Shown: piece by piece, positions 6,904 through 32,090 of the stretch
Position numbering within the stretch: the first letter of the stretch is position 1
Layout of the letters: every line of letters begins with the position of its first letter
Source: an uncultured Candidatus Saccharibacteria bacterium
GTDB lineage: Bacteria > Patescibacteriota > Minisyncoccia > JAHISW01 > Tagabacteraceae
Reading direction: 5' to 3'
DNA: 37,341 nucleotides
NCBI GenBank assembly: GCA_964590835.1
Contig: CAZPYD010000004.1
Coordinates: 6,913-44,253, forward strand
The notes under the pieces: model-generated
Told to the model about the DNA's origin: nothing
Database searches by the model: none
Seen by the model: only the letters and a program-made list of their open reading frames with translations
Made by a program: the position numbers and the translations under genes

Positions 6904-6906
6904 TGC

Positions 6907-7914: not shown

Positions 7915-7934
7915 ATTTTAAGTATATAGACAAA

Positions 7935-7970: not shown

Positions 7971-8026
7971 TTTTAAGTTTTTAATTGTTAGACTAGTTGT
8001 AGATTTTTAAAAACAAGGAGGATGCA

Positions 8027-8623: not shown

Positions 8624-8630
8624 AAATAAA

Positions 8631-8652
8631 ACAGGGCAATGCCCTGTTTTTC
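8631..8652 (+). terminator. Rho-independent terminator
   Basis: ACAGGGC-AAT-GCCCTGT hairpin followed by TTTTTCTTT. Confidence 0.75.
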
Positions 8653-8705
8653 TTTACTTAAAAATGTTACAAAGTTATACTAAATAATAGGTATGTGTTT
8701 TAATT

Positions 8706-8776
8706 TGCCAGATCGTCTAATGGTAGGACCCATGCCTCTGGAGCATGTTGTCTAGGTTCGAATCCTAGTCTGGCAG
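8706..8776 (+). tRNA. tRNA-Gln (anticodon CUG)
   Basis: Acceptor TGCCAGA/TCTGGCA with the U1:A72 pair typical of bacterial tRNA-Gln. Anticodon arm CATGC-CTCTGGA-GCATG, T arm CTAGG-TTCGAAT-CCTAG. Confidence 0.88.
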
Positions 8777-15759: not shown

Positions 15760-16719
15760 ATGGAAAAAATAAAAGTAGGTGTGGTGCGTGGCGGGCCTTC
15801 GTCCGAATATGATGTTTCTCTTAAAACAGGGGGCGAAGTTTTGCGTCATCTTTCTGAAAAAAATAATGGCGTAGATATTCTTTTGGATAAAGAGGGAGAT
15901 TGGTTTTTGAAAGGATTTCCGACTAGTCCTGCCAAAGTTTTTAATGAGGTTGATGTGGTTTTTAATGCTTTGCATGGGGAGTTTGGAGAAGATGGAAAGA
16001 TTCAGCAGGTTTTTGAATCACATAATATTCCCTACACTGGTTCCGAAATTATTCCTTCGGCAATAGCGATGCAAAAACACCGCGCTCGCGATACTTTTTC
16101 TAAATTTGGATTAAAGGTCCCACAGGCTTTGGTTTTTTCAGATATAGAAAGTTCAGAAAAATGCGCTAAAGAAGTTTTTAATAAAATATCTCCGTCTTGG
16201 GTAGTGAAGCCGGCTTCTACTGGTTCTTCTGTAGGGATTAATATTTGTAATAGTTATCCAGAATTAATAGAGGGAATAAGAGAAGCGGCGAGTTATGGGA
16301 GTGTTGTCTTGGTGGAGGAGTGTATAAAAGGGCGAGAGGCGACATGTGGAGTTTTGGAAAATTACAGAGGTGAAAACTATTACGCCTTACCGGTAGTGGA
16401 AATTATCCCCCCAGAAAACACTTTTTTTGATTACAAAGTAAAATATGATGGTTCTACAAAAGAGATCTGCCCGGCGGGGTTTGATAATTCCACAAAGCTA
16501 TTAATTAGTGAGATGGCTAAGTTGGCTCATCAGGCGCTTGGGTGCAGGCATTATTCTCGCGCTGATTTTATTTTTTCTCCAAAGGGAATTTATTTGCTTG
16601 AGGTAAATACGCTTCCTGGTCTTACTTCTGAATCTCTCTTGCCAAAAGCCGCTGCTGCAGCAGGGCTTGAGTTCCCTCAATTACTTGACCATTTAATACA
16701 GCAAGCTTTGAGTAAGTAA
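15760..16719 (+). CDS. ddl: D-alanine--D-alanine ligase
   Basis: ATP-grasp ORF of 319 aa: KVGVVRGGPSSEYDVSL, ALHGEFGEDG, LEVNTLPGLT. Confidence 0.93.
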   Translation: MEKIKVGVVRGGPSSEYDVSLKTGGEVLRHLSEKNNGVDILLDKEGDWFLKGFPTSPAKVFNEVDVVFNALHGEFGEDGKIQQVFESHNIPYTGSEIIPSAIAMQKHRARDTFSKFGLKVPQALVFSDIESSEKCAKEVFNKISPSWVVKPASTGSSVGINICNSYPELIEGIREAASYGSVVLVEECIKGREATCGVLENYRGENYYALPVVEIIPPENTFFDYKVKYDGSTKEICPAGFDNSTKLLISEMAKLAHQALGCRHYSRADFIFSPKGIYLLEVNTLPGLTSESLLPKAAAAAGLEFPQLLDHLIQQALSK

Positions 16720-16736
16720 AATACAGAAATAAATAA

Positions 16737-16770
16737 AACAAGAACACCTACTAAAGGTGTTCTTGTTTTA
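16737..16770. terminator. Strong, probably bidirectional, terminator hairpin after ddl
   Basis: Perfect 13-bp stem AACAAGAACACCT / AGGTGTTCTTGTT with loop ACTAA, flanked by an A tract and a T tract. Confidence 0.8.
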
Positions 16771-16940
16771 TTTGTGGATTAGACAGGACTCGGTCACAAG
16801 TCCTCAAAAAATATACTTCGTTATTTTTTGGGCTTGCCGACCCCGCCTCCTTCGCTTCACTCAGTCCGGCTTTCTCGTCCTGTCGGCAATCTATCGAGCA
16901 AAACAAAAACACCCATTTAAGGGTGTTCCTGTTTTCCTCG

Positions 16941-17014
16941 TGGACCCGACAGGACTCGAACCTGCCACCTCTGGAATGCAAAACCAGTGCTCTAGCCAGA
17001 TGAGCTACGGGCCC
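16941..17014 (-). tRNA. tRNA-Ala (anticodon UGC)
   Basis: The reverse complement folds as GGGCCCG...CGGGTCC with the G3:U70 alanine identity pair. Anticodon loop TTTGCAT, T arm GCAGG-TTCGAGT-CCTGT. Confidence 0.9.
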
Positions 17015-17096
17015 AATTGATACTTTATTTATACAATCTTTTGAGACTTTTTTCAATACTATTGGTTTTTATTTCCCAAATTTTTTGCTAAAATTA

Positions 17097-17132
17097 AATT
17101 ACGTAATTAATTACGTAATTTAATACGTAAAT
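17097..17132. promoter_or_regulatory. Three tandem 12-bp ACGT-centred palindromic boxes (candidate operator)
   Basis: AATTACGTAATT (17097-17108), AATTACGTAATT (17109-17120) and TAATACGTAAAT (17121-17132). They end 6 nt before the ATG of the AbrB-like gene. Confidence 0.6.
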
Positions 17133-17138
17133 AATTTT

Positions 17139-17321
17139 ATGGCAAGAAGAAAACTAGAAGATAAAAATATTAGAAAAATATCAAAAGCTGGGCGTGGTAG
17201 TTATTATGTTACTTTGCCGATTGATGCTGTTCGCGAATTTAAGTGGAAAGAAAAACAAAAAGTTGTAATTGAAATAGATAAAAAACGTAAAAGAATTATT
17301 ATTAAAGATTGGGAAAAATAA
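17139..17321 (+). CDS. AbrB/MazE/SpoVT-family DNA-binding protein (60 aa)
   Basis: The swapped-hairpin pattern GRGSYYVTLPIDAVREFKWKEKQKVVIEIDKKRKRIIIKD is typical of SpoVT/AbrB domains. Confidence 0.7.
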   Translation: MARRKLEDKNIRKISKAGRGSYYVTLPIDAVREFKWKEKQKVVIEIDKKRKRIIIKDWEK

Positions 17322-17325
17322 AATT

Positions 17326-18501
17326 ATGGAGATTCAAAAAATATTTGTGGGAGGCTGGTTTCAGAGGACAACCTTGCATTTGTCAGAGATATACGACTTT
17401 TTGAAAGAAGCTGATTCTCCTTTGGACTTGGATAAACAGAAAATGAAAGATCTTCGTGATGCTTTGATGATAAAGAATGTGGAACTAGAGGTTGGCCATT
17501 TGGATTATATTAAATTAACAAGTACAACAAATATAGAAGTTAAAATTTTTGAAGATGGGCTTATCCTGCTTGGCAAGAAAAACGAAAAAGATGTTAAAAT
17601 TGATATCGCAGATCTAACATCTTATTATGAAGAAAAATTGTCACAGGCTATTAGTTATTTTTTTTCTCTTGGAGCTCCACTTCCAAAAGAGCTTGCTGAT
17701 ATAAAAACTATTTATCCTTATTTTGTTGTATTAAAAGATGCTCAAGAAGAAGACGTTAAGAATTTATTAAACGACTTTAGACAAGAAAAACATTTTGAAA
17801 TTAAAAAAGAAACATTTGAAATTTATCGCGGTAACAAGCTGTATATTTTAAATAATATTTCTGAAAAAATTGAGGACGTTGAAAAGTTTATTCAAGAAAG
17901 AATATTTGTAAGAGAATTTAAGGGGCAACTCCATCGTTATTTAAATTTGCATCGTATAATTTGGGAAAAGATAGCGGATGTTAAAGAAAAAGGAAAAATA
18001 AGAGGTAGTGAGGTGGGTGCGCTTAATGCTAAGGTTGAAAGTTATTCTAAGACTATAAATTTGATTGATGCAAGAATAAATCAGATGGGGACATATATTT
18101 CAATAAGAGAGTCTGTATTGAAAGATAATCCTGCTATGGAGAAATTTTGGGAGGTTTTGCATTTTAAATATGATACTTTAAAAAATACTCTTTCATATAT
18201 AAAAGATATTTGGAGGATGACAAAAAATTATGTTAATTCTGCGCTGGATTTGTTTTCTTCTATCCAGGCGAGAAGCACTGAGGCATCTGTCGAAAACTTA
18301 ACAATTATTACTTCGATGGGGGTGGGCGCTACTCTTATGGGTTTATTCTCTGAAGAACCACCAGAGTTTACGGTTTTTGGAGTGGGTTACTTTTTTGCTC
18401 TTGCTGTGATAGGATATTTTGCAAGTAAGTTTATTAAGAAAGTCGCTTTAAGAAGGATGTATGAGATAGACGACATCGAGGCGGCAAAAGACATTAAATA
18501 A
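17326..18501 (+). CDS. Unknown 391-aa protein: large cytoplasmic alpha-helical domain plus a C-terminal two-TM hairpin (CorA-like topology, no GMN motif)
   Basis: Starts 4 nt after the AbrB-like gene. C-terminus is ENLTIITSMGVGATLMGLF-SEEPPEF-TVFGVGYFFALAVIGYFASKFI. Confidence 0.6.
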   Translation: MEIQKIFVGGWFQRTTLHLSEIYDFLKEADSPLDLDKQKMKDLRDALMIKNVELEVGHLDYIKLTSTTNIEVKIFEDGLILLGKKNEKDVKIDIADLTSYYEEKLSQAISYFFSLGAPLPKELADIKTIYPYFVVLKDAQEEDVKNLLNDFRQEKHFEIKKETFEIYRGNKLYILNNISEKIEDVEKFIQERIFVREFKGQLHRYLNLHRIIWEKIADVKEKGKIRGSEVGALNAKVESYSKTINLIDARINQMGTYISIRESVLKDNPAMEKFWEVLHFKYDTLKNTLSYIKDIWRMTKNYVNSALDLFSSIQARSTEASVENLTIITSMGVGATLMGLFSEEPPEFTVFGVGYFFALAVIGYFASKFIKKVALRRMYEIDDIEAAKDIK

Positions 18502-21436: not shown

Positions 21437-23842
21437 ATGAAGGAGTATAATCATAAAAAAATAGAAAAAAAGTGGCAGGATAAATGGGAGAAAGAAAATT
21501 TTTATCAGGCTGAAGATTTTTCCGATAAACCTAAAAAATATATTTTAGTAGAATTTCCATACCCTTCTGGTGACGGTCTTCATGTGGGTCATGCTCGAAG
21601 TTACACTGCACTTGATGTTATGTCTCGTAAGATGCATATGCAGGGTGACAATGTTTTGTATCCAATCGGTTGGGATGCTTTTGGACTTCCTGCTGAAAAT
21701 TTTGCTATTAAAAAGGGTATACACCCAAGTATTGCTGTGGAAAAAAATATTGCTAATTTTAAAAGGCAGTTAAAATCGCTGGGTGTTTCTTTTGATTGGT
21801 CTCGTGAAATAAACACTACTGATCCAAAATATTATAAATGGACTCAGTGGATATTTTTGAAGTTCTTGGGAAAAGGCTTGGCATATCAAAAAGAAATGCC
21901 GATAAATTGGTGTCCAAGCTGTAAGATAGGTTTGGCTAACGAAGAGGTGATAGACGGCAAATGCGAAAGATGTGGCCATGAGACAGAAAAAAGAAAAATA
22001 AAACAATGGATGTTAAAGATTACTGAGTATGCAGATAAGCTGCTTGAAGATTTAAATAAAGTTGATTATTTGGATAAAATAAAAATTCAGCAAGAAAATT
22101 GGATAGGCAGGTCTGAAGGTGCTGAAGTTGATTTTGAGATTGCAGGTGAAAAGGTAACAGTCTTTACTACAAGGCCGGACACTTTGTTTGGTTGTACTTA
22201 TATGGTTTTGTCGCCGGAACATGATTTAATTAAGAAATTAAAAGATAAAATCGAAAATATAAAAGAAGTAGAAGAACATATTGATGAAGCAAGAAAGAAA
22301 ACAGAGATTGAACGCTCAGCAGAAGATAAAGAAAAAACAGGGATTAAATTGGAAGGTGTGATGGCTGTAAATCCGGCAAATAACAAAGAAATACCTGTTT
22401 TTATTGCTGATTATGTTTTGGTGGATTATGGAACAGGTGCGATTATGGCTGTGCCAGCGCATGATAAAAGAGACTTTGAGTTTGCTAAAAAATATGGATT
22501 GGATATTGTTGAAGTAATTAGCGGAGGCGAACCCCAAAAAGAAGCTTATTCTGGAGAAGGTTTAAATGTTAATTCTGATTTTCTTGATGGGCTTGAGACA
22601 AATGAAGCAAAAGAGAAAATTATTAAATGGCTTCAAGAAAAAAATATTGGCAAGAAAGCTGTAAATTATAAATTACGTGATTGGATTTTTTCTAGACAGC
22701 ATTATTGGGGTGAACCTATTCCGGTTATTCATTGTGACAAGTGTGGCATCGTACCAGTTAAAGAAAAAGATCTGCCGGTAGAACTTCCTTATGTAGAAAA
22801 GTATGAACCAACCGAAACAGGCGAATCACCTCTGGCTGCTATGGAAGATTGGGTAAATACTAAATGTCCGAAGTGTGGCAGCGATGCCAAAAGAGAAACA
22901 GATACTATGCCTAACTGGGCAGGGTCTTCTTGGTATTTCTTGAGATATATAGACCCACAAAACAATGAAAAATTTGTTGACGAAGAAAAATTAAAATATT
23001 GGTTACCGGTAGATTTGTATAATGGTGGAATGGAGCATACTACCTTGCATCTTCTTTATTCTCGTTTTTGGCATAAGTTTTTATATGACCAAGGTCTTGT
23101 ACCCACAAGCGAGCCTTATGCCTCAAGGAGGTCTCATGGAATGATTTTGGCGGAAGATGGTAAGAAGATGTCTAAGAGTTTGGGTAATGTGATAAACCCC
23201 GATGAAATAGTGGAAAAAGTTGGTGCAGATACACTTAGGGTGTATGAGATGTTTATGGGTCCTTTTAATCAGGCAATTGGTTGGAATACAGATAGTGTTA
23301 TTGGTGTACATAGGTTTTTAAAAAGAGTTTGGATTTTGAAAGATAAGGTTAATGAGAATGTTGAAGAAAACAAAGAAGTTGAAAAAGTTTTACATCAAAG
23401 CATAAAGAAAGTTACTGAGGATATAGATAACATGAAATTTAATACTGCAGTTGCTCAGCTAATGATTTTAGTTAATGAGCTTGAAAAACAAGACGAGATA
23501 TCAATAGGTGTTTATAAGAAGTTTATTGTTTTGTTGACGCCTTTTGCTCCGCACATCACAGAAGAGCTGTGGGTGGGCTTGCCTGGAAATAAGGAGGCTG
23601 AATCTATTTTTAAGCAGCCGTGGCCTGAGTATGATGATTCTAAAATAGAAGAAGGTAGTTTTGAGTTGGTTATACAAATAAACGGCAAGTTTAAAGGTGG
23701 AATGGTTATGAATAAAGATATGAATCAAGATGATACAAAAAGGGAGGTTTTAGAAAATGACAGGTTTAAGAAGTACTTTGAAGATAAAGAGATAAAAAAG
23801 ATAATTTTTGTTAAAAATAAGCTAATTAATTTTGTTTTGTAA
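21437..23842 (+). CDS. leuS: Leucine--tRNA ligase
   Basis: 801 aa with a HIGH-type motif (GLHVGHARSY), KMSKS (KMSKSLGN), an editing-domain insertion and zinc knuckles (CPSC, CERC, CDKC, CPKC). Confidence 0.96.
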   Translation: MKEYNHKKIEKKWQDKWEKENFYQAEDFSDKPKKYILVEFPYPSGDGLHVGHARSYTALDVMSRKMHMQGDNVLYPIGWDAFGLPAENFAIKKGIHPSIAVEKNIANFKRQLKSLGVSFDWSREINTTDPKYYKWTQWIFLKFLGKGLAYQKEMPINWCPSCKIGLANEEVIDGKCERCGHETEKRKIKQWMLKITEYADKLLEDLNKVDYLDKIKIQQENWIGRSEGAEVDFEIAGEKVTVFTTRPDTLFGCTYMVLSPEHDLIKKLKDKIENIKEVEEHIDEARKKTEIERSAEDKEKTGIKLEGVMAVNPANNKEIPVFIADYVLVDYGTGAIMAVPAHDKRDFEFAKKYGLDIVEVISGGEPQKEAYSGEGLNVNSDFLDGLETNEAKEKIIKWLQEKNIGKKAVNYKLRDWIFSRQHYWGEPIPVIHCDKCGIVPVKEKDLPVELPYVEKYEPTETGESPLAAMEDWVNTKCPKCGSDAKRETDTMPNWAGSSWYFLRYIDPQNNEKFVDEEKLKYWLPVDLYNGGMEHTTLHLLYSRFWHKFLYDQGLVPTSEPYASRRSHGMILAEDGKKMSKSLGNVINPDEIVEKVGADTLRVYEMFMGPFNQAIGWNTDSVIGVHRFLKRVWILKDKVNENVEENKEVEKVLHQSIKKVTEDIDNMKFNTAVAQLMILVNELEKQDEISIGVYKKFIVLLTPFAPHITEELWVGLPGNKEAESIFKQPWPEYDDSKIEEGSFELVIQINGKFKGGMVMNKDMNQDDTKREVLENDRFKKYFEDKEIKKIIFVKNKLINFVL

Positions 23843-23868
23843 AAAATTTCAAACTTTACTATAGGGTG

Positions 23869-23897
23869 TTGACTTTGTTTTGCCGTTGTGTTATCTT
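23869..23897 (+). promoter_or_regulatory. Candidate sigma-70-type promoter for the 24035-28154 gene set
   Basis: TTGACT (23869-23874), a 17-nt spacer, then TATCTT (23892-23897). Sequence match only. Confidence 0.35.
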
Positions 23898-24034
23898 ATA
23901 AAAATATTAATCCAAATAGAGATTTAAGTTTTATTTAAACCTTTTGGGATTATTAAAGAGATAAAGACATAGCCATATAATTTTATTATAAACAATTAAA
24001 TGGAAACAAATGTTTCTTGTCTCTAATAAGTATA

Positions 24035-25060
24035 ATGAATAATATAAGTTTTAACCCAAATTTAATAACAAAGAAAATGCTTAACACCTTGGATGAAAGA
24101 CCAAGGGCAGTTTTGGTTTATCGTTTTGGTTTAGACTCTTCTAAGCCAAGAACATTAGAGTCTATTGGTAGAGAGTATGGTGTTACAAGGGAAAGAGTTA
24201 GACAGATTGAAGCTTTTGCTTTAAATAAAATTCGTCAATCAGATGAGTTTTTGAATACAGAAGATGTTTTTACTGAAATTAAAGATGTTATAGATTCTAA
24301 AGGTGGAATCGTGAATGAAGAAGACTTTTTAGAAAACAAGGTTAAAACCAAAGATCAAAGATCACATCTGTTGTTTTTGCTTGTTTTAAGTGACTTATTT
24401 CAAAAAATGAAGGAGGATACCTCTTTTCATTGTTCATGGGTGACTGATACAGAAAAAGCTCAAAAAACAAAACAAGCTGTAGAATTATTGCATAAAGAAA
24501 TAAATCGCGATAATTTATTTTCAAAGAAAGAAGTTTTGTCTATTTTGTCTGGTCATTTAGAAAAAATTACTCAAGAAAAAATAAAAGGAGATGTGTTGAG
24601 TTCTTTACTTAAAATTTCTAGCGTAGTTAAGCCTAATGAGTTGGGGGAATGGGGTGTTGCTTCTTCTCCTTATGTAAATCCTAGAGGTATGCGTGATTAT
24701 GCATTTTTGGTAATGAGAAGACATGGTTCTCCTATGCATTTTACAGAAACAGCAAGCGCCATAAAAGAACTTTTCAACAGAAAAGCTCACATGCAAACAG
24801 TTCACAACGAGTTAATAAAAGATAATCGTTTCGTTTTGGTTGGACGTGGTTTGTATGCTTTGAAAGATTGGGGCTACGAAGGTGGGGTAGTAAGAAATGT
24901 TATTGAAAAGATATTGACTCAGAATAATTATTTACCTAAAGAAGAAATTATTAAAAGAGTTTTGAAAGAGAGATATATAAAAGAAAATACTATCTTAGTA
25001 AATTTGCAAAACAAAAAATATTTCAAAAGAGATAATCAGGGTCGTTATACCCTTGTGTAA
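24035..25060 (+). CDS. Sigma-70 region-4 HTH protein with a C-terminal HARE-HTH (RNAP delta-subunit-like) domain
   Basis: N-terminus [49 protein letters not shown] matches sigma region 4. C-terminus [28 protein letters not shown]...[19 protein letters not shown] matches the HARE-HTH pattern. I prefer the ATG at 24035 over the TTG at 24017. Confidence 0.7.
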
Positions 25061-25111
25061 AACTATAGAATTTAATTTTTCTTTTTTCTAAAAAAACGCT
25101 AAAATAAAATA

Positions 25112-26272
25112 GTGGAGTTAATTTCATATATCTTAAATGATCCGCTTATTCAAGGAGTTTTTATGTGGGCTAGTCGCCTATGGTTTTTGTGGTTGCCTTT
25201 GTTTTTGGGGTTTGCTTTTGTAAACCTTTGGTCAACCCAAAAAAAACTATCTTTTTTTAGAGATATGGAATGGGTTCTTTTGGAGATTAAAATTCCAAAG
25301 GAAATTTTTAAAAGCCCTAAGGCAATAGAGGCAATTTTAAATTCTATTTATTCGCCTTCTTCAGATGGTCCTTGGTATAAAGGTAATCTAGCATCTTGGT
25401 ATAGCTTAGAGATTGTTGGTATAAATGGTGGTATTCATTTTTTTATACGCACCCCTAAGGGTTCTCGTAATTTTATAGAATCTTTGATTTATGCTCAGTA
25501 CCCAAGCGCTGAGGTTGTTGAGGCTGTTGATTATGTATATGCTTCTAATTTTGAAGATTTAGATGAGTGGAGCTTGTGGGGGACTGAATTTGGTTTAGTG
25601 AAAGAGGACGCTTATCCTATAAAAACTTATGTTGATTTTGGACTTGAGGGAGGAAAAGAAGAGCAAAAAATAGATCCAATAGTTTCTTTTTTGGAGTTTT
25701 TGGGTTCTTTAAAGCGTGGTGAGCAGGTTTGGTTTCAGATAATGATAAGAGGTACTGGTAATGATTGGGTAAAGGAAGGTAAAGAGGTTGTTGAGAAGCT
25801 ACTGGGAAGAGACAAGCCCCCTGAAGAAGCAAAACAACTTTCAAAAAGAGAAAAGGAGGTGGCCGCTGCTGTTGAAAAAAGTTTTATTAAGTATGGTTTT
25901 CAGACAGGAGTTAGAACTATTTATATTGCTCAAAGAGATATTTTTAATAAGGCAAACGTTGGGGCTATAATGGGTTCTATGAATCAATACAATACGGTGG
26001 ATCTGAATGGTTTTAAGTCAATTTGGAAATTGGACCCTGCGCCTTTTAAATTTTTTATGAAAGATAAAAGAGAGGCTGTAAGAAAAGAAATAATCTTAGA
26101 TGCTTATCGTAAACGATGTTATTTTTCTATTCCTCATCACAGAAAGCCTTTTATTTTAAATACTGAGGAATTGGCTACTATTTATCACTATCCAGGTACT
26201 GTTGCCGAAACTCCAACTTTTGAAAGAATTGGTGCAAAGAAGGGTGAGCCGCCTTCAACTTTACCTATTTAA
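25112..26272 (+). CDS. Membrane-anchored protein of unknown family, upstream partner of the TraD-like ATPase
   Basis: GTG start at 25112 (alternative ATG at 25163). Hydrophobic N-terminal segment WASRLWFLWLPLFLGFAFVNLW, then LLEIKIPKEIFKSPKAIEAILNSIY... and a C-terminal LNTEELATIYHYPG block. It ends 13 nt before the next gene. Confidence 0.65.
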   Translation: MELISYILNDPLIQGVFMWASRLWFLWLPLFLGFAFVNLWSTQKKLSFFRDMEWVLLEIKIPKEIFKSPKAIEAILNSIYSPSSDGPWYKGNLASWYSLEIVGINGGIHFFIRTPKGSRNFIESLIYAQYPSAEVVEAVDYVYASNFEDLDEWSLWGTEFGLVKEDAYPIKTYVDFGLEGGKEEQKIDPIVSFLEFLGSLKRGEQVWFQIMIRGTGNDWVKEGKEVVEKLLGRDKPPEEAKQLSKREKEVAAAVEKSFIKYGFQTGVRTIYIAQRDIFNKANVGAIMGSMNQYNTVDLNGFKSIWKLDPAPFKFFMKDKREAVRKEIILDAYRKRCYFSIPHHRKPFILNTEELATIYHYPGTVAETPTFERIGAKKGEPPSTLPI

Positions 26273-26285
26273 TATCAATAAAATA

Positions 26286-28154
26286 ATGGACAAAAATAGA
26301 ATAACATATTTTGCCAAAACAAATTTTAGAAACGAACAGACCAAGTTTGGTATTAAGAAAAAAGATAGAACTAGACATACATATATCATTGGTAAGACTG
26401 GTACTGGAAAGACAACATTGCAAGAAAATATGGCAATTCAAGATATTCGTAATGGAGAAGGGGTTGCTGTTATAGACCCCCATGGTTCTTTTGTTGAAAA
26501 AATGCTTGATTATGTTCCAGAGGAGCGCATAAAAGATGTAATATATCTTGACCCGTCGGACATGGATCATCCGATTGCTTTAAATATCATGGAAGATGTA
26601 GACGGTGATCAAATGCATTTGGTTGCCTCCGGTCTTATGGGTGTGTTTAAAAAAATGTGGCCGGATGTTTGGTCTGCAAGGATGGAATATATTTTGAATA
26701 ATACTTTGTTGGCTCTTTTGGAGTATCCAAATTCTACCCTTTTGGGAGTAAATAGAATGTATACAGATAAAGATTATAGAAAGGCGGTGGTAGATAATGT
26801 AAAGGATCCGATTGTAAAAGATTATTGGGCAAGGGAGTATGCAGGCTATACAGAGAGGTTTGCTGCAGAAGCTACTCCGGCCATTCAAAATAAAATTGGT
26901 CAATTTACTTCTAATCCACTTGTAAGGAATATTATAGGTCAGCCTAAATCCAGTTTTAGTTTTAGGACTGCAATGGATGAACAGAAGATTGTTTTAATAA
27001 ACTTATCTAAGGGACGAATCGGGGAATTAAATTCTAGCTTGCTTGGTGCTCTTTTGGTTACAAAAATTTATTTGGCTTCTATGAGTAGAGCTAAAGAGCC
27101 TGGAAAAGAGTTTCCTGATTTTTATTTTTATGTTGATGAGTTTCAAAACTTTGCTGCGGAATCTTTTGAAAATATTTTATCAGAATCACGAAAATATGGT
27201 CTTGCGCTTGTTTTGGCCCACCAATATATTACTCAGATGCCAGACGGTGTGAAGGATGCTGTTTTTGGTAATGTGGGTACGCACATAGTTTTTAGAGTTG
27301 GTCCGGAAGATGCCAGGGTGCTGGAGGTAGAGTTTGCCCCAGAGTTTACTGCTGACGATGTTGTTAATCTTGGTTTTACCAATATTTACTTAAAGCTTCT
27401 TGTGGATGGGGAGCCATCTAGGCCCTTTTCTGCTACCACACTTCCACCACTTAAAAAAAATGTAGAATCTTTTAAGCAGCAAATAATAGATTATTCTAGA
27501 GAAAAATATTGTACACCAATAGAAGATATTGAAAAACAAATAATGGAATGGCATGCGCCAGTTAAAAAAAAAGACGGTAAAAAGGGTGAGCCAGAAAAAG
27601 AACAAAAAGAAGCGCCTAAGTTGTTTGAAGCCGCTTGTTCAGTTTGTGGTAAAAAAACAGTGGTACCTTTTGAGCCAATAGAAGGCAAGCCTATTTATTG
27701 TAAGAAGCACAGAGCTTATATTACAGAGGGTGGAGGTTCTTCTACTGAAACACCAACTAAACCTAAGTCAAAAGAAACTGTTAAAAAATCCGAACCTAAA
27801 AGAGAGTTTCTTAATATGCCGACTTCATCGACTACTCGCCTCGATTCGGCGAAGCGGGCCGGCAGGCAGGCGAGCAAGCCCAGCCGCAACCTACGGATGC
27901 AGGCGGGTAAAGAAGAGGTTTCTTTGAGTCAGTTAGGTGGTGGTACAAAAGAATTTAAAAAAGAACCATTTAAGAAAAGAGAAAAATCAACTCCGGATTT
28001 TAAGGGTTTAAGAGAATTACTTGCAGATGTAGCGCCTAAAAAGACACCTGGCGAAGAAACAAAGCAATCATTAAAAGAAACAGTAAAACCCAAGCAAGAT
28101 TTTGAACCAGGCAGTGAAAAAACTCTAAAACCTGGCGACACAATAAAGTTTTAG
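26286..28154 (+). CDS. VirD4/TraD/TraG-like (FtsK/HerA superfamily) P-loop ATPase without TM helices, with a C-terminal CxxC-x17-CxxH zinc ribbon and a K/E/P-rich tail
   Basis: Walker A IIGKTGTGKTT, Walker B FYFYVDEFQNF, and the LVLAHQYITQM...FGNVGTHIVFRVGPEDA block. Zinc ribbon CSVCGKKTVVPFEPIEGKPIYCKKH at 27636-27710. I prefer the ATG at 26286 over the 26202 start in the track, which overlaps the upstream gene. Confidence 0.8.
   Translation: MDKNRITYFAKTNFRNEQTKFGIKKKDRTRHTYIIGKTGTGKTTLQENMAIQDIRNGEGVAVIDPHGSFVEKMLDYVPEERIKDVIYLDPSDMDHPIALNIMEDVDGDQMHLVASGLMGVFKKMWPDVWSARMEYILNNTLLALLEYPNSTLLGVNRMYTDKDYRKAVVDNVKDPIVKDYWAREYAGYTERFAAEATPAIQNKIGQFTSNPLVRNIIGQPKSSFSFRTAMDEQKIVLINLSKGRIGELNSSLLGALLVTKIYLASMSRAKEPGKEFPDFYFYVDEFQNFAAESFENILSESRKYGLALVLAHQYITQMPDGVKDAVFGNVGTHIVFRVGPEDARVLEVEFAPEFTADDVVNLGFTNIYLKLLVDGEPSRPFSATTLPPLKKNVESFKQQIIDYSREKYCTPIEDIEKQIMEWHAPVKKKDGKKGEPEKEQKEAPKLFEAACSVCGKKTVVPFEPIEGKPIYCKKHRAYITEGGGSSTETPTKPKSKETVKKSEPKREFLNMPTSSTTRLDSAKRAGRQASKPSRNLRMQAGKEEVSLSQLGGGTKEFKKEPFKKREKSTPDFKGLRELLADVAPKKTPGEETKQSLKETVKPKQDFEPGSEKTLKPGDTIKF
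27818..27907. repeat. GC-rich element embedded in frame in the ATPase tail
   Basis: GCCGACTTCATCGACTACTCGCCTCGATTCGGCGAAGCGGGCCGGCAGGCAGGCGAGCAAGCCCAGCCGCAACCTACGGATGCAGGCGGGT stands out against AT-rich flanks. It shares the 13-mer GCCGGCAGGCAGG with 15444-15456. Confidence 0.55.
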
Positions 28155-28287
28155 AGCCTATTCATAATTTTATGTTGAAATAAAATTTTAATGTTTTTGT
28201 TTTTTGCAGCCAAAAACTGGAAATTTTAGCCAACAAGCAAGAATTTATTCTTTTTTTACTTTTGCGATAAGATTTTGAATAGGCTCT
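28153..28287. repeat. Copy 1 of a ~135-bp structured repeat with pairing ends. It contains a remnant of a glycosyltransferase 3' end.
   Basis: AGAGCCTATTCA (28153-28164) pairs with TGAATAGGCTCT (28276-28287). On the minus strand, 28245-28286 reads EPIQNLIAKVKKE*, a paralog of the true C-terminus of the 29985-31184 gene. Confidence 0.75.
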
Positions 28288-28328
28288 AAAAATTGACCTT
28301 AAATGATTACTTTGATAGCCTAATTGTA

Positions 28329-29840
28329 ATGAAGCAATTAGGTTATTTTTTATTTTTATTTTTGTTTCCACTTGTTGTTAGTGGGCAAGTTTATATTTCA
28401 GAAATAATGTATGACGTGGAAGGAGCGGATAGTGGGCGTGAGTGGATAGAGGTTTTTAATAGTGGTAGCGTGAGTGTGGATTTGGGTGGATGGAAAATTT
28501 TTGAAAACGATACTAATCATAAAATAAATCTCTTTGACGAAGAGGGAAGTTTTGTTATTTCGTCTGGCGGCTATGCTGTGGTTGCTGATAATCCAACGAA
28601 GTTTTTAGAAGATTGGCCTGGTTTTTCAGGTCTTATTTTTGATAGCGCTTTTTCACTTAAAAATAGCGGAGAGGAAATAATATTAAGAGACGATGAATTA
28701 AATGATGTAGACAGTATCTTTTATGATGTTGAGCTGGGTGCCGAAGACGGCAAATCTCTTCAAAAAATAAACAATTTGTGGGAGGTCGGATCTCCCACAC
28801 CGGGAGAAGAAAACAAAAAAGAGTATGAGTCTATCGAAGAAGGGGGTGGTAACGAGAGTGCTGGTGATGAAATTTCGATTGACTCTAAATATATTCAGCC
28901 AGAAGATTTGCCTCAAATTAAGGCTTATGCAGGCAAAGATAAAACAGCGATAGCTGGGGCTATGACTGGTTTTGAAGGTGAAGCTTACGGTTTAAAGGAT
29001 GAGTTGCTTGATAATGCAAGATATTTGTGGAACCTGGGTAATGGCGCATTAAAAGACGGAAAGAATGTTGTTCATTTTTATAAATATCCAGGAGAGTATA
29101 GAGTGGTGTTGGATGTGTCTTCGGGGGGTTATTCTGTTTCTGATATTTTGATTTTAAAAGTAGTCCCTAATGAGATTTTTATTTCGGAGATTAAGACAGG
29201 AGTTGATTCTTTTTTGGAGCTTAGAAACCCATCTAGTCAGGAAATTGACATTTCTGGGTGGAGGTTTGTTTCAGGTAATCAAAAATTTACTTTTTCAAAA
29301 AATAGTTTTATAAGGCCTTATAGCTATTTGGTGATTCCATCTTATTCTTCGGGGATAATTTTTGATTCGGGAAAAGGGAAGGTAGATTTTCTTTATTCTA
29401 GTGGTTTGTTGGCGGATTCTTTTGTGTATGGCGGGAATCTTTTGAAAGATCAGAGTTTTTCTCGGAACGGCGATAATATAGGTATTACTAAAGAAACACC
29501 GGGAAGTAAAAATGAAAAATTAATTCAAAAACAAACAAATGTTCGAAACCTGTCTGCCGGTAGACAAGGTTCAACTTTGAACATTTCTAGGGAAGTAGAA
29601 ACTAGTGAAGTTAGTTCCAACTATCGAGGTCCAACCTCGATAGTTGGAGAAGGAGAGGATAAAGAGGAAAAGGTGCTTAAAGAAGATGCGGGTTTAAATC
29701 AAAACCAACAAGCAAACATTGTTACTGTTGGTGGTGGCGATGGTATAAATAAGAAGTATTATTATCTTGGAGTCTTGGTTTTAATTGTTTTTGCGGGTGT
29801 TGGAATTTATGTTATACGTCGCAAGAGTAGAGTTTGGTAG
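28329..29840 (+). CDS. Surface protein: signal peptide, lamin-tail domain (LTD), PKD-like domain, second LTD, linker, C-terminal TM anchor
   Basis: MKQLGYFLFLFLFPLVVSG signal. LTD pattern YISEIMYDVEGADSGREWIEVFNSGSVSVDLGGWKI. PKD-like pattern WNLGNG...VVHFYKYPGEYRVVLDV. Second LTD IFISEIKTGVDSFLELRNPSSQEIDISGWRF. C-terminal YYYLGVLVLIVFAGVGIYVIRRKSR. I prefer the ATG at 28329 over the TTG at 28293. Confidence 0.8.
   Translation: MKQLGYFLFLFLFPLVVSGQVYISEIMYDVEGADSGREWIEVFNSGSVSVDLGGWKIFENDTNHKINLFDEEGSFVISSGGYAVVADNPTKFLEDWPGFSGLIFDSAFSLKNSGEEIILRDDELNDVDSIFYDVELGAEDGKSLQKINNLWEVGSPTPGEENKKEYESIEEGGGNESAGDEISIDSKYIQPEDLPQIKAYAGKDKTAIAGAMTGFEGEAYGLKDELLDNARYLWNLGNGALKDGKNVVHFYKYPGEYRVVLDVSSGGYSVSDILILKVVPNEIFISEIKTGVDSFLELRNPSSQEIDISGWRFVSGNQKFTFSKNSFIRPYSYLVIPSYSSGIIFDSGKGKVDFLYSSGLLADSFVYGGNLLKDQSFSRNGDNIGITKETPGSKNEKLIQKQTNVRNLSAGRQGSTLNISREVETSEVSSNYRGPTSIVGEGEDKEEKVLKEDAGLNQNQQANIVTVGGGDGINKKYYYLGVLVLIVFAGVGIYVIRRKSRVW
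29538..29647. repeat. Two palindromic elements inside the LTD gene linker
   Basis: An imperfect ~50-nt palindrome at 29538-29587 is centred on TGTCTGCCGGTAGACA. A perfect 14-bp stem CCAACTATCGAGGT-CCA-ACCTCGATAGTTGG lies at 29617-29647. Confidence 0.7.
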
Positions 29841-30025
29841 TCTACTCAAAATCTTATGTTGAGATAAAATTTTCATGTTTTTGTGCGAAAAAGACAAAAG
29901 CCTAGGAAATAATATCTAGATATATTGATAAGGCTTTTGGTTTTTGCAGTCAAAAACTGGAAATTTTAGCCAGCAAGCGAGAATCTATTCTTTTTTTACT
30001 TGTGCGATAAGATTTTGGGTAGACT
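29839..30025. repeat. Copy 2 of the structured repeat, with an extra ~56-bp hairpin insert. It overlaps the real 3' end of the glycosyltransferase gene.
   Basis: AGTCTACTCAAAATCTTAT (29839-29857) pairs with ATAAGATTTTGGGTAGACT (30007-30025). The extra segment at about 29884-29940 carries AAAAGCCT...AGGCTTTT. Confidence 0.75.
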
Positions 30026-31184
30026 CCAGCATTTTCTCAAAACTGAATTCTCTATAAATTTTTTCCCAAAGAGAGGTGGCTAAGTTGTTTTTTAGTTCAG
30101 TTTCTTTTATAAGTTTTTCTATGGCTTCTGTTATCTGTTGTGGGTTAGCAGGTTTTACAAGCAGACCAGTTGAGATTACTCTAGAGTTTTCTGAGATGTT
30201 TTCTATGATTTCAGATACACCTCCGACGTTTGTTGCTATAACAGGTAGTCTTGCTAATCCAGCTTCAAGTAAAACGTAAGGCAGACCTTCTTTAACAGAA
30301 GGTAAAACAAAAATATCAAAGGCTTTTAAGTAATTTGCTTCGTTACCCTGGCTATCAATCAAAAAGACGTTGTTTTCTAATTTTAGGTCTTTTATTTGTT
30401 TTTCTAGTTTTTCTTTTCCTTCACCAAAACCAATTATAAAAACATGTAACATGTAACCTGAAGCATGTAACATTTTAACTGCGTCAATTAAATATTTGTG
30501 GCCTTTGTTTTTTGTAAATTCACCGATTGTTCCGACCCAGATTTGATCACCCGTGTCTGATAGCTGAGAGCTGTTTACTGATAACTTTTCTCTCGCTTTT
30601 TCTCTAGATAAAAATGTGTAGTCTTCGGATTTAATTCCATTTTGAATAGTTATGAGTTTATTTTTTGGGGCAATATTATTTTTAAGTGCGATTTGTTTGT
30701 CATATTCTGATACGCAGATTATTTTGTCGTAAAACAGGCAAGTAAATTTACTAAATATTTTTATAAGTTTTGTCTGTATTTTAGAGCGAGGTTCACTAAA
30801 AGCCCAACCATGAGCAGTGAATATAGTTACTGGTGATTTGAAGATTTTATAAGCCCAAATAGCAGCTCCGGCAATACCACCAGCCTTAGAACTAGAAACA
30901 TGTACCACGTTTGGTTTAGTTTTAAAAAGTAAGGCAAGAATTTCAAAAAAAGCGGATAAATCTTTGAAAAAAGAAACATCACGTTGAAAGCTTTCTATTT
31001 CATGATAGGTTATATTTTTTTGTTTTATTTTTTGTGCCAAAACACCTTGTCCACCTGCTGCAACGTGCACGTCAAATTTATCACTAGACAAGCTAGTGGC
31101 TAAGTCGTAAGTATATTTTCCCGCACCTGCCCAAACAGATTTAGTTATTACGTAAAGTGTTGTTATTTTGCTTGATTTTTCCAT
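29985..31184 (-). CDS. GT4-family (GT-B fold) glycosyltransferase
   Basis: 399 aa with the E-x7-E region PSVKEGLPYVLLEAGLARLPVIATNVGGVSEII. Confidence 0.88.
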   Translation of the reverse strand: MEKSSKITTLYVITKSVWAGAGKYTYDLATSLSSDKFDVHVAAGGQGVLAQKIKQKNITYHEIESFQRDVSFFKDLSAFFEILALLFKTKPNVVHVSSSKAGGIAGAAIWAYKIFKSPVTIFTAHGWAFSEPRSKIQTKLIKIFSKFTCLFYDKIICVSEYDKQIALKNNIAPKNKLITIQNGIKSEDYTFLSREKAREKLSVNSSQLSDTGDQIWVGTIGEFTKNKGHKYLIDAVKMLHASGYMLHVFIIGFGEGKEKLEKQIKDLKLENNVFLIDSQGNEANYLKAFDIFVLPSVKEGLPYVLLEAGLARLPVIATNVGGVSEIIENISENSRVISTGLLVKPANPQQITEAIEKLIKETELKNNLATSLWEKIYREFSFEKMLESTQNLIAQVKKE

Positions 31185-31217: not shown

Positions 31218-32090
31218 ATGAATAAAGTCAATTCAAAGACAATTTTAGTGACTGGCGGAGCCGGTTTTATCGGTTCTCATTTGTGTGAGAGGTTTGTTTG
31301 TGATGGCCATAAGGTAATTTCTTTGGATAATTATTTTACTGGTTCAAAAGAGAATCACGTAGAGGGTGTTGAGTATCGAGAGGGTCACACAAAAGATATA
31401 GAAAAGTATATTTTTGAGAATTAGGATATTATTTATCATCTTGGTGAGTATTCTCGTGTTGCAGCTAGTTTAGAAGAGCCGGAATTGGTTTGGGATTTGA
31501 ATATGGCGGGTACACTTGCTGTTTTGGAATTTTGGCGAAAGCAAAAATGTAAGCTTGTTTACGCTGGTTCTTCTACAAAGTCTGTTGGGCCGCGCGATGA
31601 CGGTGTAAGTGGGCGTGATTTGGCTCCCTATACTTGGGCAAAGGCGATAAATAGTGAATTAGTAGTAAACTATAGCAAGTGGTATGACTTAACATACGCT
31701 ATTACTTATTTTTATAATGTGTATGGCTCCAGAGAAAGGAGTGATAAGTACGGCACACTAATAGAAATTTTTAAACAAAATTATTTAAACAACAGACCAC
31801 ACAAAGTGCGTGGGCCAGGAACTCAAACAAGAACCTTTACACATATTGATGATACTATTGATGGAATTGTTCTTGTGGGAGAAAAAGGGGAAGGAGATAA
31901 TTTTGGCATTAGCGCAAAAGAATCCTATTCTTTACTTGATGTGGCTGAAATGTATGGAGGAGAAGTAGAAATACTTCCCCCAACTAAAACAACTAGACCA
32001 AAGTCAGTAGTAAATACCACTAAAATAGAAGCCCTCGGCTGGAAGCAAAAAAGAAAACTAGAGGATTATATTGAGGAGGCAAAAAATTAA
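31218..32090 (+). pseudogene. NAD-dependent sugar epimerase/dehydratase (extended SDR) interrupted by one in-frame TAG
   Basis: [10 protein letters not shown] Rossmann motif and YTWAK (YxxxK). The track ORFs 31218-31424 and 31485-32090 are in the same frame, and 31425-31484 is open (DIIYHLGEYSRVAASLEEPE). The only interruption is TAG at 31422-31424. Confidence 0.8.

Follow-up and report, generated by a model that had tools for sequence, protein, structure and literature searches.

A type IV coupling protein split between two neighbouring genes of an uncultured Candidatus Saccharibacteria bacterium

Two adjacent genes of an uncultured Candidatus Saccharibacteria bacterium, here called B and C, each encode one half of the same type IV coupling protein (T4CP) of the VirD4/TrwB family, monoderm type. 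The ATPase C, which an earlier note on this DNA had regarded as orphan and anchor-less, is thereby explained as one part of a single motor protein. We assign a probability of roughly 0.6 to the reading that B and C re-form a membrane-tethered motor, preferably one serving a T4SS encoded elsewhere in the genome. The module can be called undescribed only in part: VirD4-type homologues, near-universal and mostly far from virB4, have been published for 2,918 of 3,035 Patescibacteria genomes (96%) in 2025 (PMC12102498), and Pfam already lists DUF8128 as a family, while the fission/fusion link, the modelled VirB4-like N-domain and the partner genes are new here.

Results

The sequence studied is a 37,341-nt window, by which we mean the whole stretch of DNA analysed (CAZPYD010000004.1 of assembly GCA_964590835.1, positions 6,913-44,253). 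ORF calling returned the coordinates and the close, co-directional spacing previously given for four genes, A to D, all on the plus strand with intergenic gaps of 51 (A-B), 13 (B-C) and 174 nt (C-D) (Table 1). With upwards of 4,000 homologues for B and at least 8,000 candidate homologues for C, these are real genes and not chance open reading frames, and the GTG start of B is backed by N-terminal alignment with homologues. Pfam detected no VirB4, VirB6, relaxase or integrase among window ORFs of at least 100 aa, in line with the earlier claim that the window lacks conjugation-machinery and integrase genes; the remaining ORFs of this size are housekeeping or envelope genes or are without a Pfam match. 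Another gene of the window contains an in-frame stop codon.

Table 1. Genes, domains and motifs of the A-D locus (window positions; residue numbers refer to the respective protein)
Feature	Positions	Strand	Description
Gene A	24035-25060	+	341 aa from ATG; ORF opens at TTG 24017
Gene A, sigma-70 region 4 HTH			residues 16-68 (N-terminal); Pfam/NCBIfam
Gene A, HARE-HTH winged helix			residues 219-279; Pfam/NCBIfam
Gene B	25112-26272	+	386 aa, GTG start
Gene B, TM segment	25154-25234	+	about residues 15-41; single hydrophobic segment in Kyte-Doolittle scan
Gene B, C-terminal tail	26183-26269	+	residues 358-386, ends YHYPGTVAETPTFERIGAKKGEPPSTLPI
Gene C	26286-28154	+	622 aa from ATG
Gene C, motor core	26286-27605	+	residues 1-440; TrwB/VirD4-type P-loop ATPase, all-alpha insertion
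Gene C, Walker A	26391-26414	+	GKTGTGKT, residues 36-43
Gene C, Walker B	27120-27152	+	FYFYVDEFQNF, residues 279-289
Gene C, treble-clef zinc ribbon	27621-27704	+	CxxC-x17-CxxC, residues 446-473
Gene C, C-terminal tail	27705-28154	+	low-complexity, K/E/P/S-rich, runs to stop codon
Gene D	28329-29840	+	503 aa

A profile search, suggested by the earlier note, matched C to TrwB_AAD_bind (6.4e-18, 65 bits against a cut-off of 20.5 bits), T4SS-DNA_transf, TraG-D_C, DUF87 and zf_Tbcl_2 (7.7e-11), and also yielded the LTD and PKD matches of D and the HARE-HTH match of A. The Walker motifs read from the sequence are conserved: G36, G39, G41 and K42 of Walker A and F279, V283, D284, E285, F286, Q287 and F289 of Walker B are invariant in homologues, and the motor core is about 63% identical across lineages. 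The zinc ribbon, which also matches TIGR04272 (1e-10), is common to the A-B-linked ATPases looked up; several other homologues, P0301 (the sole unlinked ATPase looked up) among them, have no zf_Tbcl_2 listed. Beyond it, the tail varies in length and sequence among homologues, its columns being poorly conserved (alignment A2). A hydrophobicity scan found no hydrophobic segment in C, which is consistent with its earlier description as soluble and free of TM helices, while the N-terminal hydrophobic segment ascribed to the upstream 386-aa protein is present as the only one in B. The K-rich stretch that follows this segment would, by the positive-inside rule, place the DUF8128 domain in the cytoplasm.

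Although the domain of about 330 aa in B had been considered unassignable, and our local Pfam copy gave no match for B, precomputed annotation places it in PF26449/DUF8128, and it models as a VirB4 N-terminal-domain-like fold. With the AF2 model of B (pLDDT 80.3), Foldseek matched only VirB4 chains in the PDB, the top 13 matches all being TrwK/VirB4 (E 3.5e-6 to 1.3e-4), with TM-scores of just 0.39-0.45. The N-terminal helix is long both in this model and in the AF2 model of a fused homologue.

A query of B and C joined end to end retrieved many proteins of 828-1115 aa containing PF26449 and PF10412, at 40-45% identity over 93-100% of the query. They are known from other Patescibacteria (Jacksonbacteria and Berkelbacteria among the named sources), from T4SS clusters on Streptomycetaceae plasmids and from Bacillus phage G, where a VirB4-like ATPase lies next to them. 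Their consensus, ...KKGEPPxNLPI-(7 residues)-ELTxFAxTNFR..., agrees with the end of B (...PPSTLPI, then stop) and the start of C (MDKNRITYFAKTNFR), and the B/C break falls exactly in this linker. The family phrog_5156 spans B as well as C, and at one locus (L087) the two genes overlap by 4 nt. The ATPase half of the modelled fused homologue P0242 (pLDDT 86.9) superposes on TrwB (TM 0.61-0.65, E 1.6e-13) and also on Cag-beta and DotL; the full-length model aligns collinearly with TrwK/VirB4 across about 900 columns. The suggestion of a split motor, with anchor and NTPase on separate chains, thus gains direct backing from single-chain fusions. The position of the break in the linker, the 13 nt between the genes and the in-frame stop codon elsewhere in the window would also suit an artefact, a single gene interrupted by a sequencing error or by recent pseudogenising mutation. 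Against this, the two-gene arrangement with its own start codon occurs in dozens of distinct lineages, both halves are strongly conserved and they are non-adjacent in most genomes; unlinked yet conserved halves effectively refute it.

Alignments A1 and A3 show the C-terminal tail of B to be near-invariant. In the isolated model it is disordered (pLDDT <50), and in fused proteins its counterpart is the inter-domain linker. It is probably a docking peptide for C.

Gene A matches Sigma70_r4 (2.3e-15) and HARE-HTH (1.8e-6) in Pfam, with NCBIfam matches too, and a Kyte-Doolittle scan found no hydrophobic segment; its product is a candidate cytoplasmic adaptor, possibly binding DNA or RNA polymerase. 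Its proposed coupling to the module is supported by tight linkage to B, as about 72 of 80 species genomes, with differing flanking contexts, have A immediately before the DUF8128 gene. Gene D combines two LTD domains (7.5e-28) and PKD with an N-terminal signal or TM segment and a C-terminal TM segment found by scan. We regard it as a candidate surface partner of the motor, with a signal peptide, an LTD-PKD-LTD ectodomain and a C-terminal TM anchor followed by a short cytoplasmic tail. At 17 of 80 metagenome loci the next gene after the ATPase encodes an orthologous LTD protein, its start codon often overlapping the ATPase stop codon. ATPases not linked to B are likewise often followed immediately by a D-like LTD-PKD-LTD membrane protein (e.g. 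L095), a recurrence that favours the suspected tie between the two.

The ATPase adjoins B in a minority of loci only. Flanking genes of A-B-C-D are always housekeeping genes, the family holding a syntenic housekeeping position in no fewer than 589 species genomes, and within 6-10 kb of B or C at 175 loci (2.0 Mb) single-sequence phmmer, of limited sensitivity, detected no homologues of VirB4, VirB6, PrgI, TrsD or relaxase. Chromosomal domestication, as put forward in the earlier note, is therefore upheld by housekeeping contexts in hundreds of species, without mobile-element genes. At the same loci, median identity was 62% for the ATPase core and 51-54% for LeuS, a noisy comparator; conservation of the core looks more like that of a core housekeeping machine than of a typical coupling protein. 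This and the phmmer result weigh against a motor that serves a T4SS.

These data bear on two further explanations. It is highly improbable that the locus is a mobile-element remnant or component, or an anti-phage defence module with a HerA/DUF87-type ATPase. Weak PADLOC matches link C to mad8, HerA and DndH models and A to MzaA (via sigma region 4 only), relatives reside on plasmids and in Bacillus phages, and a Bradyrhizobium homologue sits among CHAT and TPR genes; however, the PADLOC matches are limited to generic P-loop or sigma-r4 segments, the window has flat composition besides lacking an integrase, and identity to the close relative L001 is about 80%, the same as for neighbouring core genes. 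The broad syntenic housekeeping distribution likewise argues against it. Improbable, if less so, is an FtsK-like housekeeping DNA pump, a membrane-tethered hexameric translocase clearing or segregating the chromosome at the septum, in which A would take the role of the FtsK gamma domain in sequence/DNA recognition. This could account for the housekeeping-level conservation and for the neighbours: an MltG/YceG-like gene after B in 74 of 80 loci, FtsW directly upstream of A-B-C in L087-L090, recurrent MurC-like genes, ddl and MurJ, and ftsE, ftsX and ddl upstream of A-D in the window. Envelope genes are, however, frequent neighbours in small genomes by chance or inherited gene order, C has no FtsK_SpoIIIE Pfam match and is TrwB-type by sequence and fold, and the pump leaves no role for a surface LTD partner. 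Moreover, Saccharibacteria TM7x transcriptome papers name FtsK, so that at least this class probably has its own.

Discussion

In this lineage (Parcubacteria/Paceibacteria-type by homologue names), a T4CP gene was cut within a linker of about 7-10 residues. In the preferred explanation, the invariant tail of B would dock onto C, restoring an ATPase, probably a hexamer, that is tethered to the membrane on its cytoplasmic side and may act as substrate receptor and motor. It would preferably serve the Patescibacteria T4SS (virB4, virB6 and virB2-like genes), whose genes usually lie at another place in the genome. Carrying two HTH modules, A may be an adaptor that binds nucleic acid, much like a relaxosome accessory protein, and D a surface-exposed partner. 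Given the HTH protein, the zinc ribbon and the TrwB ancestry, we favour DNA or nucleoprotein as cargo; conjugation itself is unlikely because relaxases are almost absent from the phylum (PMC12102498).

The labels "orphan" and "not a conjugation system" are correct at the locus. They do not extend to the full-length homologues, which stand beside VirB4 in actinobacterial plasmid T4SS and in phage G, and "orphan" is further weakened because a T4SS is encoded at another genomic site in 80% of Patescibacteria assemblies, with VirB4 in 2,417 (80%) (PMC12102498). On an Embleya plasmid the gene order is PrgI-family gene, VirB4-like ATPase, 812-aa T4CP, replication-relaxation gene and NlpC/P60 gene; hhalign aligned the fused profile with this T4CP at Prob 100 (E 1.9e-63, 698 columns) and the N-domain alone at Prob 97.9 (E 5.5e-13). 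The N-domain also matches phage G gp156 (Prob 99, E 4e-18), which adjoins the VirB4-like gp155.

A-B-C-D could instead be a self-contained, exapted envelope translocase uncoupled from any T4SS, which is essentially the earlier reading and which we consider doubtful though worth serious attention. In one version it would mediate uptake or hand-over of DNA or nucleoprotein, D capturing outside, B6C6 pulling and A binding inside. Just 148 of 5,713 T4CP homologues lie near virB4, and T4CP homologues are commoner by genome (96%) than VirB4 (80%), which counts against our preferred explanation, although this gap could stem from assembly incompleteness; in S. epibionticum a T4CP homologue, perhaps not the B/C orthologue, is reported to be non-essential whereas the T4SS is essential, again a point against our preferred explanation, and the authors themselves raise exaptation (PMC12102498). 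Also consistent with autonomy are the conserved partners A and D, the very high ATPase conservation, tandem paralogous fused copies with intact Walker motifs in some classes, and the co-occurrence of bacterial LTD domains with nucleases and with metallo-beta-lactamase hydrolases (Mans et al. 2004, cited in PMC6085458). Nevertheless, with a single TM helix per subunit there is no evident channel, so that the machine would still depend on a partner pore, and full-length homologues outside the phylum adjoin VirB4. Among loci with room for it, only about a quarter to one third have D beside the ATPase, and the fused paralogues (L092 and L094) have no adjoining A, the latter also a point against our preferred explanation. 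Transformation of S. epibionticum moreover proceeds via ComEC, as comEC deletion abolished competence (PMC12857230).

The fused T4CPs of monoderm mobile elements (Embleya/Streptomyces plasmid T4SS clusters, phage G gp156) and of other Patescibacteria are collinear with B and C across both halves and have in common with them the Walker motifs and the linker motif EELAxxxHxP...PP..LP. They differ from the arrangement here, which has two polypeptides, a C-terminal zinc ribbon, a long disordered tail, A and D as neighbours, and housekeeping genes in place of an adjoining VirB4, relaxase-like gene or cell-wall hydrolase. TrwB (R388), Cag-beta and DotL have the P-loop motor with an all-alpha domain seen in C, and TrwB is the best structural match of the ATPase half despite only 15-19% identity; unlike B/C, it has a transmembrane domain of its own at the N-terminus, adjoining the motor and absent from the crystallised TrwBdeltaN70, lacks a DUF8128/VirB4-like N-domain and is encoded with relaxase and T4SS. 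VirB4 (TrwK of R388) has the same architecture, a membrane-associated N-domain followed by a RecA-like C-terminal ATPase. Yet A-D have no CagE_TrbE_VirB or AAA_10 Pfam match, the NCBIfam VirB4 score is far under its cut-off, TM-scores are low (0.34-0.45) and the ATPase C is nearer TrwB; in addition, VirB4 relies on a separate VirB3-type protein, whereas B carries its own TM helix.

N-domain-like material is also split over polypeptides in VirB4-type machines, namely TrsD and TrsE of pGO1 and archaeal CedB and CedD. TrsD is remotely similar to the VirB4 N-terminus (PMC12102498), and profile comparison found no similarity of DUF8128 to TrsD or TrsE; CedB and CedD, which import DNA, correspond to complementary portions of the VirB4 N-terminal domain (bioRxiv 10.1101/2024.09.27.615246), and C has a partial NCBIfam CedD match (1.3e-12, 47 bits against a 600-bit cut-off). 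Both pairs are VirB4 lineages, in contrast to the VirD4-type ATPase C. A separately anchored T4CP, finally, is not without precedent: TraJ of pIP501, a T4CP without TM domain, and its proposed anchor TraI represent the same tethering of a soluble ATPase by a separate polypeptide (PMC12857230). Unlike B/C they are plasmid-borne within a tra operon, and TraI is small with two predicted TM domains, whereas B has about 390 aa and is VirB4-NTD-like in its model.

B and C are two halves of one coupling protein

By identity and by architecture, genes B (transmembrane helix and DUF8128) and C (TrwB/VirD4-like ATPase) of the window are one coupling protein cut in two. When B and C were concatenated end to end and taken as a protein-database query, many natural single chains of 828-1115 aa carrying both PF26449 and PF10412 were returned, 40-45% identical to the query across 93-100% of its length, with Jacksonbacteria and Berkelbacteria among their named sources. 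The consensus of these fusions reads ...ILNIEELASxFHLPNxSVETPxIVWAGSKKGEPPxNLPI on the N-terminal side of a linker of about 7 residues and ELTxFAxTNFRxxxxKFGIKxxDRRxHMYxIGKTGTGKTT... after it. B ends in ...KKGEPPSTLPI*, and C, 13 nt past that end, begins with MDKNRITYFAKTNFRNEQTKFGIKKKDRTRHTYIIGKTGTGKT; since these two termini match the consensus on either side, the fission site is precisely the linker. One PHROG family, 824 positions long, likewise covers both proteins, B at positions 80-223 and C at 396-820. The split is no artefact, as it recurs across many lineages and the halves are non-adjacent in most genomes; a frameshift artefact was accordingly rejected as its origin, the halves being conserved as separate, often unlinked genes.

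Re-reading the window bore out the positions, shared direction and spacing of the four genes given in the earlier note (Table), and a Pfam search of A, C and D mostly agreed with its domain calls. It had also described C as free of transmembrane helices and B as having a hydrophobic N-terminal segment, and a scan found no such segment in C and one in B (about residues 15-41); nor is there a VirB4, VirB6, relaxase or integrase gene among the ORFs of the 37-kb window, as it had said. Its overall interpretation survives in part: the motor is split and chromosomally fixed, but the pair is a variant coupling protein with its own partner genes and not a categorically new system.

Table. Features of the window and their coordinates
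Feature	Position	Direction	Domain or annotation
tRNA-Ala	16940-17014	minus strand	between ddl and the Band7 gene
391-aa ORF	17326-18501		no Pfam match; between ddl and the Band7 gene
leuS	21437-23842		LeuS
Gene A	24035-25060	co-directional with B, C, D	Pfam Sigma70_r4 and HARE-HTH
Gene B	25112-26272	co-directional with A, C, D	PF26449 (DUF8128), precomputed annotation
Gene C	26286-28154	co-directional with A, B, D	Pfam TrwB_AAD_bind, T4SS-DNA_transf, TraG-D_C, DUF87
Gene D	28329-29840	co-directional with A, B, C	Pfam LTD-PKD-LTD
Epimerase gene	31218-32090		NAD-dependent epimerase

The window is chromosomal and of low GC (about 34%). Its other genes encode an M16 peptidase, metS, tatD, prfB, ftsE, ftsX, a MacAB-like ABC system, ddl, efp, an ECF sigma factor and leuS, and its downstream part GT4 glycosyltransferases and an epimerase. 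The intergenic gaps A/B, B/C and C/D measure 51, 13 and 174 nt, and D has a signal or transmembrane segment at its N-terminus and a transmembrane anchor at its C-terminus by hydrophobicity scan. Compared with a syntenic close relative (locus L001), A-D are 68-82% identical, comparable to the adjoining core genes. A promoter scan of 23700-30100 gave promoter-like counts at shuffle level and no operon boundaries, while terminator-like sites in this interval numbered 9 against 3.5 ± 2.1 expected and were located inside genes.

The motor and its anchor

The Walker A (GKTGTGKT, residues 36-43) and Walker B (FYFYVDEFQNF, residues 279-289) motifs of C are invariant in 22 homologues, and the ATPase core is better conserved than LeuS across the loci compared. 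With Pfam, C scored above the curated threshold of TrwB_AAD_bind (65.2 bits, cut-off 20.5) and also exceeded the cut-offs of T4SS-DNA_transf (27.0 against 20.1 bits) and TraG-D_C (27.8 against 22), whereas its scores with the NCBIfam equivalog models TraD and CD1115 lay far under theirs. It further contains a CxxC-x17-CxxC zinc ribbon, which is absent from the description in the earlier note. C is a coupling ATPase of the VirD4/TrwB family, for which a hexameric state, ATP hydrolysis and DNA or substrate binding are all predicted. Neither B nor C matched the VirB4 profiles CagE_TrbE_VirB and AAA_10 in Pfam, and the TIGR00929 score was 19 bits against a cut-off of 643.

No N-terminal membrane anchor lies in the same chain as the motor; the anchor is on the separate protein B, with single-chain versions in other lineages, and the split accounts for the anchor-less look of the ATPase in Parcubacteria/Paceibacteria-type genomes. 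Self-anchoring is not universal among type IV coupling proteins (T4CPs), as the proposed anchor of the pIP501 coupling protein TraJ is a separate small membrane protein, TraI (PMC12857230). An FtsK-like role in division is a minor alternative: C gave no match to the FtsK_SpoIIIE profile in Pfam at E <= 0.1, and an FtsK-type multi-pass N-terminal membrane domain was not found, B having a single hydrophobic segment. A literature search on FtsK in Patescibacteria returned nothing relevant beyond Saccharibacteria transcriptome papers.

DUF8128 and the fold of the full-length form

B's cluster (P0001) and nearly all of its homologues carry the precomputed annotation PF26449 (DUF8128); our local copy of Pfam-A, apparently lacking that model, gave no meaningful match for 33 members (B and 32 homologues). 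The family is large: a word-indexed search at E <= 1e-3 gave more than 4,000 homologues, and an exhaustive profile search 3,169 cluster representatives, of which 1,069 reached E <= 1e-30; the source names seen are all Patescibacteria. In an AF2 model of B from 33 sequences (pLDDT 80.3, pTM 0.79), a long N-terminal helix leads into an alpha/beta domain, and the last ~25 residues are disordered yet nearly invariant in sequence.

In a Foldseek search of this model against the PDB, the best 13 matches were all TrwK/VirB4 chains of the R388 type IV secretion system (T4SS), at E 3.5e-6 to 1.3e-4 and probability 1.0 but with TM-scores of only 0.39-0.45 and aligned coordinates not reported; the subsequent matches were unrelated oxidases at E > 1e-3. 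Because VirB4 chains were matched by B alone and P-loop-only relatives (TrwB, HerA) were not, the likeness appears to be to the VirB4-specific N-terminal domain, which the DUF8128 fold would thus resemble. A PDB sequence-profile search for DUF8128 relatives found nothing and hhalign of DUF8128 against pGO1 TrsD and TrsE was negative, so that links to known families were obtained solely by structure comparison and by hhalign of the fused-protein profile.

The full-length form was modelled on a natural fusion, P0242 (AF2, 46 sequences; pLDDT 86.9, pTM 0.61), and it is on this homologue, rather than on window protein C, that the TrwB-like fold (nucleotide-binding and all-alpha domains) was observed. 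Its ATPase half matched TrwB in Foldseek with TM 0.61-0.65 normalised to TrwB (E 1.6e-13, 15-19% identity), and also Cag-beta and DotL. The whole chain aligned collinearly with TrwK/VirB4 (about 900 columns, E about 3e-13, TM 0.34-0.38); the large rmsd suggests that the domains are oriented differently. Judged from these models, the fused protein would resemble VirB4 in architecture (membrane-proximal N-domain plus ATPase), whereas its motor is like that of VirD4/TrwB. The Patescibacteria VirD4-type ATPase thereby gains an architecture of transmembrane helix, VirB4-like N-domain and TrwB motor, fused or split, and DUF8128 a probable structural identity; a T4CP retaining a VirB4-type N-domain is relevant to the divergence of VirB4 and VirD4. 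In the searchable literature the term 'DUF8128' did not occur, and we found neither the fission/fusion relation nor the VirB4-like N-domain nor the partners A and D described.

Ancestry in coupling proteins of monoderm mobile elements

Among homologues from beyond Patescibacteria, those that match C best are plasmid-borne, and relatives on plasmids and in Bacillus phages are 22-38% identical. On an Embleya (Streptomycetaceae) plasmid, an 812-aa homologue sits in a cluster of the monoderm T4SS type, in the order PrgI-family (VirB3-like) protein, VirB4-like ATPase, the homologue, replication-relaxation protein and NlpC/P60 hydrolase. The fused Patescibacteria profile aligned with the Embleya protein by hhalign at Prob 100 and E 1.9e-63 over 698 columns, and the N-terminal halves alone did so at Prob 97.9 and E 5.5e-13 over 310 columns; a Streptomyces plasmid copy matched at E 5.6e-12. 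The 825-aa gp156 of Bacillus phage G is built like the fused Patescibacteria proteins, its N-domain matching the fused-form profile (Prob 99, E 4e-18) and gp156 the split-B family profile (E 2.2e-9). It directly follows gp155, which is VirB4-like (blastp 3e-29 to the Embleya VirB4-like ATPase), so that the two-ATPase unit is common to Embleya and phage G. In this jumbo phage the pair of VirB4-like and DUF8128-like/TrwB-like ATPases occupies 2154-6296 of locus L182; related ATPases occur in about 40 other phage records, nearly all from Bacillus phages.

From the neighbours of the Embleya and phage G proteins, the family is a type of coupling protein carried by monoderm mobile elements, normally beside VirB4, and the ancestry of the B/C pair lies in such proteins. 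This fits the published derivation of the Patescibacteria T4SS from monoderm conjugation machinery (PMC12102498). A phage or plasmid origin of the window locus itself was rejected, there being no mobile-element features, and is retained as ancestry only. Two further homologues were uninformative: that of Bradyrhizobium has an N-domain that is not DUF8128-like, and that of a Sulfitobacter plasmid is ATPase-only and adjoins transposases.

Gene neighbourhoods and candidate partners

The pair is linked to A and D, which are therefore candidate partners. A B-centred scan of GTDB species genomes yielded at least 589 positives, of which 80 were analysed: about 72 have A directly upstream of B, about 60 have leuS upstream of A, 74 have an MltG/YceG-like gene after B, and only about 6 have the ATPase there. 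The conserved string is thus leuS - A - B - mltG, the window being without mltG at that position; in L007-L086, 146 YceG/MltG-like ORF fragments follow the DUF8128 gene at 74 loci, probably because the gene is present twice or its calls are split. ATPase-centred look-ups of three zinc-ribbon homologues, including Giovannonibacteria and Nealsonbacteria, found the A-B-C trio in all three with differing flanks (FtsW or SecF upstream); in one related locus (L087) B and C overlap by 4 nt.

An ATPase-centred scan covered 80 metagenome loci, 57 with enough upstream sequence, 49 with enough downstream and 39 with room on both sides. B lies directly upstream of the ATPase in 22 of the 57, and an LTD-PKD-LTD protein directly downstream in 13 of the 49 (17/80 overall), often with overlapping ATPase stop and LTD-protein start codons. 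Where both sides were covered, B alone is present at 15 loci, D alone at 10 and neither at 14; on a 609-kb contig a B-unlinked ATPase is followed after 1 nt by an LTD protein. All four genes are present in the window, L001, L008, L012, L014 and L099. Several D orthologues encoded directly after the ATPase (L095 10817-12229, L102, L109, L118, L128, L132) end in a short acidic, EEFEIxE-like motif that is cytoplasmic, past the C-terminal transmembrane helix, and could be a docking peptide; D of the window is without it and terminates in RRKSRVW.

Fused lineages have two tandem fused paralogues, of about 800 aa and about 970 aa, flanked by ribosomal, tgt and secDF genes and without A (L092 6605-11916, L093 337-5648, L094 5837-11925). 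Walker A and B are intact in both, which suggests a possible hetero-oligomeric motor, and the arrangement recalls the paired ATPases of archaeal DNA import, CedB/CedD.

Function of the pair

Mechanistically, the invariant tail of B would dock C to the membrane, and the B/C complex would act as a hexameric ATPase that receives and drives substrate. We favour the reading that it serves a T4SS encoded elsewhere in the genome (probability about 0.45), since all full-length homologues outside the phylum that lie in recognisable clusters adjoin VirB4. VirB4 has been reported in 2,417 Patescibacteria assemblies, and the T4SS is essential for epibiotic growth in the single species tested, S. epibionticum (PMC12102498).

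The main rival, to which we give distinctly less credence, is an autonomous exapted machine. Homologues of VirB4, VirB6, PrgI, TrsD and relaxases were not detected by phmmer in 175 loci (6-10 kb around, 2.0 Mb). In a survey published in 2025, VirD4-type homologues occur in 2,918 of 3,035 Patescibacteria genomes (96%), usually about two in each and 5,713 in all, of which only 148 are near virB4, and no more than 103 genomes have relaxases; S. epibionticum can dispense with its T4CP homologue although not with its T4SS, and exaptation, in the authors' words, 'cannot be ruled out' (PMC12102498). The fullest version, more doubtful still, makes A-B-C-D a near-universal Patescibacteria machine in which an ex-conjugative T4CP has lost its tie to the T4SS, been split and gained A and D as new partners, and which would transport nucleic acid or nucleoprotein between the epibiont and either its surroundings or its host. 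DNA would then travel by a third route, in addition to ComEC competence and classical type IV secretion. Patescibacteria account for a sizeable part of bacterial diversity and are host-dependent; were the machine independent of the T4SS, a major lineage that has hardly been cultivated would have a new route of translocation across the envelope. A DNA or nucleoprotein cargo is suggested by the presence of two HTH modules in A, by the zinc ribbon, by the TrwB ancestry and by the link, cited in PMC6085458, between LTD domains in bacteria and nucleases and metallo-beta-lactamase hydrolases; a literature search on HARE-HTH and sigma proteins gave nothing relevant. The VirD4-type ATPases, present in 96% of Patescibacteria genomes, now have an architecture and candidate partner genes.

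A defence or mobile-element role is unlikely. PADLOC did return matches, mostly to short generic P-loop or sigma-r4 segments (P-loop matches mostly about 40-65 residues), the one long match, to mad8, being weak (50 bits, residues 20-339); a defence system was rejected. As for HerA-type defence, B and D had no PADLOC match and the window holds no partner nuclease gene.

Other features of the window

LeuS is only 51% identical to its L001 counterpart (6467-8773), against 70-90% for its neighbours (Ddl 85, Band7 90, EF-P 82, sigma 88, A 82 and B 82%), which suggests an in-situ replacement of leuS in the window or L001 lineage. Between ddl and the Band7 gene, separated by only about 200 nt in L001, the window has a segment (16751-18501) with a tRNA-Ala gene and an ORF (Table), and 16001-17000 shows a local GC peak (0.417) with a GC-skew dip. 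The epimerase gene is one 291-codon frame with a single in-frame TAG at 31422-31424, and is either a pseudogene or a sequencing error; the L001 gene is intact (289 aa), with Leu at that position.
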